This document shows positions 1 to 3,000 of a stretch of 3,635 bases of DNA, piece after piece (position 1 is the first letter of the stretch; every line of letters starts with the position of its first letter). The DNA lies in assembly GCF_003334255.1 (NCBI RefSeq), contig NZ_QOWU01000117.1, one strand, 5' to 3'. Origin of the DNA: Escherichia coli (GTDB lineage Bacteria; Pseudomonadota; Gammaproteobacteria; Enterobacterales; Enterobacteriaceae). Position numbers: made by a program.

Positions 1-3000
1 GTGGTCAGGGCATCATCGCCGTCAGACCTCGCAGGAAAACTGACGCAAAAACTGAAGGAAGGCTGGCAACCCTATGGTAGTCCGATTATCTCAAACGCGG
101 GTTATGGTGCTGAATTTATCCAGGCTATAGTCGCTGAAGGGGATATGACCTCTCCGGTAGTTTCACCGGGGGGAGATGGTACCCGGACTGTTGTTGTTGA
201 ACCAGAATATTACTTTGTCATTGCGCTGGCCGGACAGTCAAACGGCATGGCGTATGGTGAAGGCCTGCCGCTGCCGGAGACATATGACCGTCCGGACCCG
301 CGTATTAAACAGCTGGCGCGTCGCAGTACGGTGACACCGGGTGGTGCGGCCTGTGCATATAACGACATCATTCCGGCGGACCACTGCCTGCATGATGTGC
401 AGGATTTGAGCCGTTTTTCTCATCCGAAAGCCAGCGCAGAGCAGTATGGGTGTGTCGGACAGGGATTGCATATTGCCAAAAAGCTGTTGCCCTTTATGCC
501 GGAAAATGCGGGTATTTTGTTAGTGCCGTGCTGTCGTGGTGGCTCTGCGTTTACAGCCGGTGCTGACGGAACGTTCAGTGAAAGTTCAGGAGCGTCGGAT
601 AAATCTGAACGATGGGGCGTTGATAAGCCGTTGTATAAAGACCTGCTGACACGCACTCAGGCCGCGCTGAAGGCAAACCCCAAAAACATACTGCTTTGTG
701 TTGTCTGGATGCAGGGCGAGTTTGATTTAAAACAGGGAGCGTACGCCAGTCAGCCCGCCATGTTTGATGCCATGGTGGAAAAATACCGTTCTGACCTGGC
801 GGGAGTATCCGGTCAGTGCGCTGGTGCTTCTCCTTCTCTGGTGCCCTGGATTTGTGGTGACACGACGTACTACTGGAAGGAGACGTATTCAGCGCAATAC
901 GATGCCGTTTATGGCGCATACAAAACCAAAGCCGGTAAAAATATCTTCTTTGTGCCGTTTATGATGGATGACAATGGTCAGAAAGTCGGGACCAATGAAC
1001 CGTCAGAAGACCCGGATATTCCGGCTATCGGGTATTATGGTTCCGGTGGACGAACGGATGCGAAGAGCTGGACAACATCCGATCGTAAAACCCACTTTGG
1101 TTCATGGGCGCGTCGCGGAATTATTTCCGACCGTCTGGCAACAGCCATTCTTCTGCATGTGGGCAGAGTGGCAGATTTTGTTTCCGGGAAAGTGACAAAA
1201 GCCGCGGTTTCTTCAGGCGGAGGCGTATCGCAACCAGCACAGGAGAGTGGCGATACTCAGCCTGAAGCCGTTGTCCCGACAAAGATACAGTCAGTGCTGG
1301 CTTATGATGTGAATGCGGAAAATGCCGCTCTGGCTTCGCAGGGCTGGACGCTGACAGATGTCAAAAACACGCTGGTCAGTGACAGTGGTTCAGGTAAAAA
1401 AGCCCTTCGTCTTGAAAAACCAGAAAATGGTCTTGCACAGAAAAAGACCTGGAAAGTATCGCACGCAATTGATGCCGGTAAGGGGAAGGAGCTGTTCGAT
1501 AACGGCGGTGAAATCACGCTGCGCTTTAAAATCCCCGATGATGTATCTCTCAATGCTTCTGCAAATCAATATTCTGCGGGTATTTACTGGCGCGGTAGTG
1601 GATGGCCGGGAGCGGAATCAGAGGAGGGTTATATTGCGGCCTTCTATCTGCAGACTGATAAAACAAACATCAATGTGATGTATCATGCAAACACCACATC
1701 ACAGCGGCTTGGTAGTTATGGTCCGTTCGATCACGACTGGCACACGCTGACTTTCCGCTTCCCGGGTGGTGGCTCGCTGAACGTCACGCCGGTGCTTGAT
1801 AATGCAGCAGGAAAACCGTTTACGCTGACCAGATGGACGAATGCAGCCTTTGAGGCCAACGCGCTGGCAATTACGGATATTACCGGAAATGCGGCAACTT
1901 ACCCTGTGCTGATTGAAAGTCTTACTGTTGGTGTGAATGCCGTAGCAGCATAACAGACGAAAAAAAACCGCCAGCAACAGGAATGGAGACTGGCGGAGGT
2001 AATCCCAATGGAGAATCTAACGAAAGGATGCTTTCGACATCAATCATTTCTAAATGAAAACAGTTCTCATTGTCAACAGTAACGGTAATAAACCATGACA
2101 TTCATCAACCAGTTAATGCTGTACTTCTGTACGGTGGTCTGTGTGTTGTATCTTCTTTCAGGTGGATACAGGGCAGTACGCGACTTCTGGCGCAGACAGA
2201 TTGACAAAAGGGCCGCTGAGAAAATCAGCGCCACTCAGTCAGCCGGAGCAAAAACAGAAGCCCCACTCATTCCGGAACAACCTTCTTAATAACCCCTTTC
2301 AACGAGAAAATCCTATGTCAGAAATAAAATCGCTGGTCACTGCTGAGGCAGTGAAGGAAGTCCTGCGCTCTGAAGAAGTCCGGAGCGCACTGAAACAGCA
2401 ACTTCGGCAGAACCTTGAGGCGCGTCTTGATGCAGAAGTGGATTCAATTCTGGATGAATTGCTTGGTGCACAGCCGGAACCATCCCCGGAACTGCTTCCG
2501 GAACCACAGGCGGAAGATGTCACCACGGAAAATGGTGATATTCAGCCGGAGTCACCGGTGACGGATATGACAGACACACAACCCGAACCGGGCACAATGC
2601 TGTAACGGCGGGGCAGGGCCATCAGTAAAACACTGATGGCCTTTTTTATTTCCGGTAGCACAGGTCTGTCGGGGCGGGGATATGTATCAGATGGAAAAAA
2701 TATCAACGGGCATAGCCTATGGTACTTCTGCGGGCAGTGCGGGTTACTGGTTTCTACAGTGGTTGGATCAGGTTACTCCGTCACAGTGGGCTGCTATCGG
2801 GGTTTTGGGGAGCCTGTGTCTGGGGTTCCTGACATACCTGACGAATCTGTATTTCAAAATTAAAGAGGACCGTCGCAAGGCTGCCCGGGGAGAGTGATTA
2901 GGTGACTCAGAAACTCCACTATGGTTTATCGGTAGCCGTTCTGGCGCTGATTGCGGCAGGTGCTTCTGCGCCTGAAATCATCGACCAGTTTCTTGACGAA

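Follow-up and report, generated by a model that had tools for sequence, protein, structure and literature searches.

We analysed a 3,635-bp stretch of Escherichia coli DNA (contig NZ_QOWU01000117.1), referred to below as the window, and focused on a small gene at 2095-2289 that encodes a membrane protein of the DUF1378 family. The window is the late region of a prophage resembling the lambdoid Shiga toxin (Stx) phages, with every gene on the plus strand, and its segment 1954-2700 has 97% identity with phages PhiR5_2 and PhiR12_3 and with one E. coli chromosome. It contains the following features.

1-1953, plus strand: open reading frame (ORF) of a NanS-p-like sialate O-acetylesterase, its 5' end being the window edge (phrog_143, E 3.8e-293; orthologues PF03629 SASA).
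2075-2094, plus strand: translation initiation region of DUF1378, A/U-rich and unstructured, with a vestigial Shine-Dalgarno (SD) sequence, ACGGTAA.
2095-2289, plus strand: coding sequence (CDS) of the DUF1378 family protein, 64 amino acids (PF07125, E 8.1e-36; phrog_494, E 5.7e-38).
2101-2160, plus strand: predicted transmembrane helix of DUF1378, codons 3-22, FINQLMLYFCTVVCVLYLLS, called from hydropathy, the AlphaFold2 helix and conserved residues.
2158-2187, plus strand: DUF1378 signature SGGYRAVRDF, codons 22-31, at the predicted membrane-cytoplasm boundary, called from conservation among 20 members.
2315-2605, plus strand: CDS of the acidic partner DUF826, 96 amino acids (PF05696, E 2.4e-28; phrog_311).
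2615-2653, plus strand: intrinsic-terminator-like hairpin and T-tract separating the DUF1378-DUF826 pair from S; a 12-bp stem, then TTTTTTATTT.
2682-2897, plus strand: S, class II (phage-21-type) holin with a Met1/Met4 dual-start motif (phrog_20, phrog_9876 'holin').
2902-3435, plus strand: R, lysozyme-type endolysin with an N-terminal segment, LSVAVLALIAAGASAP, like that of signal-anchor-release (SAR) endolysins (phrog_7, E 1.8e-62).

The DUF1378 ORF runs from the ATG at 2095 to the TAA at 2287-2289, which is followed by a further in-frame TAA at 2290-2292, and its product is MTFINQLMLYFCTVVCVLYLLSGGYRAVRDFWRRQIDKRAAEKISATQSAGAKTEAPLIPEQPS. A preliminary description of this DNA had singled out the frame as a 64-amino-acid single-pass membrane protein, and the start, the frame and the tail are present as described. 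Because the window holds 40 ORFs of at least 30 amino acids and 64 codons alone are within chance, the case for a gene rests on conservation. We therefore compared 82 homologous loci (two phage records and 80 IMG/VR contigs), which gave 25 distinct CDS; the 25th entry (L078) was a BLAST-offset artefact, and 24 full-length CDS were counted. The ATG was kept and the frame was open over 59-64 codons in 24 of 24. Variable sites at codon positions 1, 2 and 3 numbered 9, 8 and 27, respectively, and the pooled Nei-Gojobori ratio of nonsynonymous to synonymous substitution rates (dN/dS) was 0.17 in the DUF1378 frame, compared with 2.1 and 2.8 in the other forward frames. Pairwise dN/dS values against the window sequence were 0.08-0.19, at dS of 0.36-0.69. 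Tolerated frameshifts or stops, which the preliminary description had named as signs of a spurious frame, were not seen. Since the frame is intact and under purifying selection, the ORF is not refuted as a gene; 2095-2289 genuinely encodes a protein, a member of the DUF1378 family.

The same description had called the protein unannotatable. On the contrary, PF07125 matches residues 1-59 over model positions 1-59 of 59 (i-Evalue 8.1e-36, score 122.4), phrog_494 matches as well, and the Prokaryotic Genome Annotation Pipeline (PGAP) names such genes routinely. The RefSeq/PGAP labels 'DUF1378 family protein' and 'DUF826 domain-containing protein' were found in 1,028 of 5,426 complete E. coli genomes, with a median of two and a maximum of seven copies per carrying genome. 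About 310 deposited phage genomes carry DUF1378, nearly all of them Stx-converting, and essentially all Stx-converting phages of the phage collection carry it. Phage PhiR12_3 and 13 IMG/VR contigs already contain the exact 64-amino-acid protein. When 5.8 billion proteins were searched with a word index, the result was 115 clusters, all PF07125, from Escherichia or Shigella and at least 62% identical, and an exhaustive profile search of 1.84 billion representatives returned only 32 DUF1378 members. Divergent members, down to 23% identity, came from the profile search and from a tblastn search of phages, and the family ranges from 47 to 91 amino acids in length. NCBIfam and PADLOC have no family for DUF1378 or DUF826, and in the literature we found only a passing mention of DUF1378, as being present between nanS-p and S (PMC10462455). 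Thus, as a member of a catalogued family with identical copies in public records, the ORF is already known, and as a sequence feature the gene is ordinary and already annotated. What is new here is the family-wide synteny.

The N-terminal hydrophobic helix noticed earlier was readily recovered, the best 19-residue window being residues 3-21 with a mean Kyte-Doolittle value of 2.02. The Arg/Lys-rich segment behind it is also real, with 4 K/R and 1 D/E in the 15 residues after the helix, and so is the polar tail; the whole C-terminal part of the window protein has 8 K/R versus 5 D/E. On the other side, the helix is flanked by only two residues, both uncharged. The 15 residues after the helix hold 4-5 K/R in all four DUF1378 subfamilies, which likewise share the hydropathy pattern. 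By the positive-inside rule, this charge bias points to an N-out/C-in topology. AlphaFold2, given the 20-sequence family alignment, returned a single uninterrupted helix spanning residues 3-51, then a disordered tail, with moderate confidence (pLDDT, the predicted local distance difference test, 68), and the basic cytoplasmic helix runs on to about codon 45. DUF1378 is therefore predicted to be a bitopic inner-membrane protein with about two periplasmic residues, a transmembrane helix at 3-22, a basic cytoplasmic helix and a disordered tail.

Alignment of 20 divergent members, down to 23% identity, showed that the conserved core is the transmembrane helix and the juxtamembrane motif, while the tails are variable. 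The family motif is the transmembrane helix followed by [SA]-G-G-[YW]-x-x-[IV]-R-x-[YWF]. L20 and G24 are invariant, G23 is kept in 18 of the 20 members, and Y/W25, R29 and an aromatic residue at position 31 are each kept in 19; the window protein has L20, G23, G24, Y25, R29 and the aromatic residue at 31. Within the helix, L9, F11, C/S12, V15, C/S16, L18 and L20 are conserved, and this conservation is spread around the helix rather than confined to one face (conservation moment 0.06). A reading of the N-terminus as that of a lipoprotein or o-spanin was rejected, as LYFC does not make a lipobox and Cys is absent from many members. A sequence search of the PDB gave a sole match, of the helix to TRAP-gamma, with an E value of 0.018, which is at chance level.

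The translation signal of the gene is weak, as had been suspected. The best anti-SD duplex has -3.1 kcal/mol, level with random window positions (mean -3.5 kcal/mol), compared with -7.0 for S and -11.5 for R, and the initiation region is unstructured (fold z = +0.27). The motif GTCAAC-N3-ACGG(T/A)(A/G)AGAAA at the start is kept in close relatives, and distant DUF1378 members have clear SD sequences, as strong as -10.7 kcal/mol. A consensus-based scan, which a weak promoter could escape, found no sigma-70-like promoter on either strand between 1800 and 3000, and Rfam gave no match in the DUF1378 region. Expression of nanS-p rises 1-2.4 log on mitomycin C (PMC10462455). Because there is no promoter-like site from nanS-p to S and nanS-p is induced by mitomycin C, late expression of DUF1378 is expected, and by its position between nanS-p and S the gene is likely transcribed within the Q-dependent late operon.

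The intergenic regions on both sides of the pair are structured. The hairpin at 2615-2653 has a fold z of -3.9, with none of 200 shuffles as stable, and compensatory stem changes preserve it across 14 distinct intergenic sequences. A second conserved hairpin at about 2647-2682 sequesters the G-rich SD of S, just before the Met1/Met4 dual start, and its structure is also retained by compensatory changes in 14 distinct sequences. The terminator and the SD-sequestering hairpin together imply that only Q-antiterminated transcripts reach S and that translation of S is controlled by structure. Upstream, a GC-rich hairpin lies just 3' of the nanS-p stop, with A8 at 1960-1967 and the stem CCGCCAG (1968-1974) and CTGGCGG (1990-1996), and the structured region extends to about 2035. 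This hairpin is conserved in 34 of 34 distinct upstream sequences, including those with another loop or an altogether different stem. On the plus strand, 1955-2050 folds as three hairpins (z = -3.6, compared with -1.2 for the minus strand). In minus-strand orientation, 1960-1996 has the shape of an intrinsic terminator (hairpin and U8), and no minus-strand gene or promoter is evident there.

The preliminary description had placed an acidic protein immediately downstream, and the 96-amino-acid DUF826 ORF indeed starts at 2315, after a gap of 25 nt. It contains 22 D/E and 7 K/R. AlphaFold2 gave helices at residues 10-17 and 20-50, with pLDDT below 50 for the remainder, and DUF826 is predicted to consist of an N-terminal helical domain and a disordered acidic Pro/Glu-rich tail. 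Profile searches returned PF05696 and phrog_311 only, neither with an assigned function, and no PDB relative was found. DUF826 follows DUF1378 in the Stx-type loci, in a Mu-like phage, in locus L093 and in L099. The basic juxtamembrane helix of DUF1378 could be a docking site for the acidic DUF826.

In the Stx-type loci, the order nanS-p, DUF1378, DUF826, S, R was invariant wherever the sequence reached far enough. The nanS-p gene (cluster C0) was upstream of DUF1378 in 80 of the 82 homologous loci and adjoined it on that side in every Stx-type locus. Stenotrophomonas phages BUCT708/709 and their relatives (including locus L090) carry an S21-like holin, a SAR lysozyme, an Rz-like spanin, DUF1378 with an ATGA overlap, and a tailspike. 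Locus L092 has a muramidase, DUF7940 (a PHROG holin), Rz and DUF1378, and L093 has Q, a holin, a soluble lysozyme, DUF7940, Rz, DUF1378, a 68-amino-acid DUF826 confirmed by Pfam, and terminase. In L097, a holin, a SAR lysozyme, an i-spanin and the o-spanin LysC are followed by DUF1378, again with an ATGA overlap, and L099-L101 contain a nanS-p-like gene, DUF1378 and a DUF826-like gene, then a PF16080 holin.

A scan of IMG/VR with three long-form DUF1378 members yielded 35 loci, whose neighbours were clustered and annotated with PHROG. A spanin was directly upstream of DUF1378 in 33 of the 35, as it is in L083, L090, L092, L093 and L097, and all three of phrog_20 (phage-21-type) holin, phrog_7 endolysin and spanin were present in 23. 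SAR-like Gly/Ala/Ser-rich hydrophobic N-termini were found in 27 of the 28 endolysins of the main cluster. Where the upstream ORF had at least 90 amino acids, a 4-nt overlap joined its stop to the DUF1378 ATG in 26 of 32 loci. The genes 3' of DUF1378 differed from locus to locus, and none was DUF826. A recognised holin was present in every DUF1378 cassette examined, and these partner holins fall into five or more unrelated families (phrog_20/PF04971, PF16080, PF05106, DUF7940/phrog_13249 and phrog_1356, phrog_1350, and phrog_217). Most DUF1378 cassettes are of the pinholin (phage-21-type) and SAR-endolysin type, and the family-wide synteny indicates that in most of the family DUF1378 is the last, translationally coupled cistron of the lysis cassette.

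The tailspike 3' of DUF1378 in BUCT709 has no similarity to a NanS-like esterase. L085 is a frameshift-ridden copy of the BUCT709-type cassette and was not counted as a context of its own. A Mu-like phage within an Stx1a prophage (LC727895; L084 1812-4464) carries a diverged nanS-p, DUF1378 and DUF826 trio of 680, 60 and 81 amino acids. The trio occupies the accessory right end, flanked by a Gin-like invertase on one side and a Com-like/cytosine-methylase pair on the other. This shows that the three genes move as a unit between unrelated phage types.

We tentatively propose, with a little less than even confidence, that DUF1378 is an accessory lysis-timing factor, possibly releasin-like. Acting from the cytoplasmic side of the inner membrane, the protein would adjust when the membrane step of lysis takes place, this step being the triggering of the pinholin and/or the release of the membrane-tethered endolysin, and lysis as such would not require it. 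In the window and the rest of the Stx-like clade, the gene stands at the front of the cassette, upstream of S, a position to which it has probably moved, and its product may work with the soluble acidic DUF826, which the basic tail could recruit to the membrane.

A comparable job is done by the releasin of phage Mu. Mu gp25 (Chamblee et al. 2022, PMC9239132), whose gene comes right behind those of the spanins, has 99 amino acids and an N-out/C-in topology, with four residues in the periplasm; it promotes SAR endolysin release, and its family, DUF2730 (PF10805), also occurs with non-SAR endolysins (PMC9239132). DUF1378 is likewise small and bitopic, with a predicted N-out/C-in topology, about two periplasmic residues and a helical cytoplasmic part, and in most members its gene directly follows the spanins, usually with SAR and sometimes with soluble endolysins. 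On the other hand, DUF1378 proteins have 47-91 amino acids rather than 99, DUF1378 phages have holins whereas Mu has none, the acidic element beside DUF1378 is encoded separately as DUF826, and in the window the DUF1378 gene lies three genes upstream of R, before the holin, where a releasin gene would be expected no more than about five genes downstream of the endolysin. The job of DUF1378 may therefore be of the same kind as that of gp25, by a likeness of architecture and not by homology.

Several observations weigh against this proposal. Synteny is guilt by association, and many of the 35 viral loci are from related phages, so that the counts do not represent independent events. The slot after the spanins is a classic insertion site for morons. 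DUF1378 also occurs with soluble endolysins and with at least five holin families, which argues against a SAR-specific or holin-specific mechanism. In the Mu-like phage, where gin, nanS-p, DUF1378, DUF826, com and the methylase gene stand together, there are no lysis genes nearby, and at one prophage end DUF1378 stands alone after a tail-fibre assembly gene, again without adjacent lysis genes. Indeed, the nanS-p, DUF1378 and DUF826 trio recurs in three settings (Stx-type loci, the Mu-like phage and L099-L101). In the window, the terminator before S groups the pair transcriptionally with nanS-p unless Q antitermination is active. As for the releasin, the juxtamembrane segment of DUF1378 is basic (4 K/R, 1 D/E), while the gp25 domain is anionic. 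Homology to DUF2730 was rejected, as hhalign of the 20-sequence DUF1378 alignment against a 17-sequence DUF2730 alignment gave a probability of 0.27%, an E value of 0.23 and 12 aligned columns, and a Pfam scan of the DUF1378 protein gave no PF10805 match; as far as profile comparison can tell, DUF1378 is not a DUF2730 member. Finally, a literature search by enterohaemorrhagic E. coli (EHEC) locus tags and by Pfam and PHROG accessions returned nothing relevant and no experiment on any DUF1378 protein.

The main rival, which we consider rather unlikely, is that DUF1378 and DUF826 form a moron-like module that travels with nanS-p, has a role other than lysis, such as superinfection exclusion, modulation of the envelope or physiology, or support of NanS-p, and stands beside lysis genes through permissive insertion sites. 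The recurrence of the trio in the Stx-type loci, in the Mu-like phage lacking nearby lysis genes and in L099-L101 fits such a module. So does the window, in which the pair is bracketed by the conserved hairpin after nanS-p and the conserved terminator before S, and so do the lone DUF1378 in one prophage accessory end and the highly variable genes 3' of long-form DUF1378, as is typical of moron territory. However, most of the family is found without nanS-p and DUF826, and the overlap of the DUF1378 start with the spanin stop (26 of 32 loci) indicates integration into the operon rather than an autonomous moron with its own promoter. There is no promoter-like site upstream in the window and no PADLOC defence-family match, and with only about two periplasmic residues the protein could not contact an incoming phage or its DNA-injection machinery outside the membrane. 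An exclusion protein, one of the functions listed in the preliminary description, is a possibility for which we found no support.

It is improbable that DUF1378 is a dedicated holin or antiholin, which would make membrane lesions itself or bind the transmembrane domains of S to delay or advance triggering. The protein fits the generic description of a holin (small, one transmembrane domain, charged C-terminal tail), which is not diagnostic, and in the window its gene is on the upstream side of S. Conserved small or polar residues (C/S12, C/S16, S/A22 and G23-G24) would suit helix-helix packing. Yet all examined cassettes already have a recognised holin, and the diversity of these holins (at least five unrelated families) makes a specific transmembrane-domain partner unlikely. 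DUF1378 has no similarity to S, which has its own Met1/Met4 dual start, and in phage 21 the dual start of S provides the antiholin. The spread of conservation around the helix likewise does not favour a single binding face. The classical antiholins (the dual-start products lambda S107 and phage 21 S71, P2 LysA, P1 LydB and T4 RI) would resemble DUF1378 in being small cassette-encoded factors that modulate timing and do not execute lysis, but they are holin isoforms or binders of a single holin, whereas DUF1378 is unlike S and accompanies at least five holin families.

A helper of morphogenesis or packaging at the lysis-to-terminase junction is very improbable. Terminase subunits are the next recognisable downstream genes in L093, L098 and several IMG/VR loci, and the PhiR5_2 record labels the DUF826 gene 'head completion protein'. 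This label was rejected, as no profile search backs it: DUF826 matches PF05696 and phrog_311 only and has no PDB relative. DUF1378 is coupled to the spanin cistron and not to terS, and the structural genes of Stx phages are distant from it. To our knowledge, a membrane-anchored protein of 50-90 amino acids has no role in lambdoid head assembly.

Even less credible is a type-I-toxin-like peptide under antisense RNA control. Like Hok, TisB, Ldr and Ibs, DUF1378 is small with a single hydrophobic helix, its SD is weak, and the conserved hairpin with A8 at 1960-1996 has the shape of a terminator on the minus strand. Unlike these toxins, it has no detected antisense RNA or promoter of its own, given that the consensus-based scan gave no promoter-like site on either strand from 1800 to 3000 and Rfam no match in the region, and folding of the intergenic region favours the plus over the minus strand. 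The gene is one of several cistrons in a late operon, its counterparts in relatives overlap spanin genes, and its conserved partner, DUF826, is a protein. Thus, among the functions guessed at in the preliminary description, the link to lysis gained support from family-wide synteny, while the type I toxin found none and the specific antiholin became disfavoured.

It is scarcely conceivable that the true product is instead an overlapping ORF. The 933W record AF125520 annotates a 148-amino-acid L0106 (L002 4180-4626), which runs in the +1 frame through the 3' two-thirds of DUF1378 into DUF826, and its counterpart in the window is a 154-amino-acid ORF at 2141-2605. This +1 frame is open from about DUF1378 codon 8 into DUF826 in nearly all close relatives, and phrog_8301 (139 amino acids) gathers such products; but the frame evolves as non-coding (dN/dS 2.1, compared with 0.17 for DUF1378), has a stop in the close relative L033, is closed upstream of the DUF826 ATG in the divergent Mu-like copy, and is seen by Pfam and PGAP as two separate genes. 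Judging from this substitution pattern and these closures, the N-terminal extension in the older Stx-phage annotations of 148-154 amino acids and in phrog_8301 is not coding. Apparent DUF1378-DUF826 fusions (phrog_8301, P0130, P0137 and P0093) contain the translated intergenic peptide '..QRENPM..' and were set aside as frameshift or read-through artefacts of the L0106-style ORF. The idea that the Ala/Glu-rich tails of long-form DUF1378 are a fused DUF826, a Rosetta-stone link, was not supported (hhalign probability 2%, E 0.022).

Returning to DUF1378 as an accessory lysis-timing factor, lysis timing in Stx phages governs both the burst and the release of Stx. A conserved fifth gene of the lysis cassette, where timing controls toxin release, is a cheap and well-defined target for genetics. 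About a fifth of complete E. coli genomes carry DUF1378, and often several copies of it. With the family-wide synteny, a role accessory to lysis becomes the best-supported and an easily testable hypothesis for what had been a 'domain of unknown function'. The synteny further suggests that, besides the one known from Mu, other membrane-tethered accessory factors accompany pinholin/SAR systems more widely. A wider claim, which we regard as doubtful for now, is that DUF1378 (with DUF826 in Stx-type phages) represents an unrecognised class of lysis-timing regulators that is independent of the holin family and is a releasin analogue of independent origin. If so, it would help set when the hosts of Stx phages burst and release toxin.

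As for the lysis genes of the window, RefSeq names S 'class II holin family protein', its orthologue is PF04971 Phage_holin_2_1, and the S proteins of Stx phages have been described as P21-family pinholins (PMC10462455). The orthologue of R is PF00959, and the N-terminal Gly/Ala/Ser-rich hydrophobic segment is legible in its translation. S starts with MYQMEK (2682-2693), so that the Met-Tyr-Gln extension before Met4 lacks a basic residue. In phage 21, the dual-start extension of the antiholin form of S includes a Lys, and by this comparison the built-in antiholin of Stx-type S may be weak. L026 (3786-4592) and about 29 related loci (cluster C5) have a 268-amino-acid ORF (MKKKYELVVKGINNYPNKITV...) inserted downstream of S, which lies between S and R where the locus still includes R and is absent from the window. 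On the minus strand, 3502-3590 gave a sub-threshold Rfam match to the rimP leader (27.5 bits compared with a gathering score of 47, E 0.15), which overlaps a plus-strand hairpin and T-run 3' of R (about 3528-3560) and is most likely due to chance.

The DUF7940 proteins (L092 3186-3449 and L093 3271-3477) have 68-87 amino acids and two hydrophobic segments, are encoded between the endolysin and the spanin, and match the PHROG holin families phrog_13249 and phrog_1356; in L092 DUF7940 is the sole holin candidate. In vB_SmeS_BUCT709 (OM816835; L083 3651-3887), an annotated minus-strand 'hypothetical protein' is the antisense of an unannotated S21-like holin gene, and at the equivalent position in L090 PF04971 Phage_holin_2_1 is called. 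A spurious minus-strand ORF in the window at 2768-2878 has the peptide 'P-x-AAHC-x-GV' in common with the BUCT709 antisense ORF.

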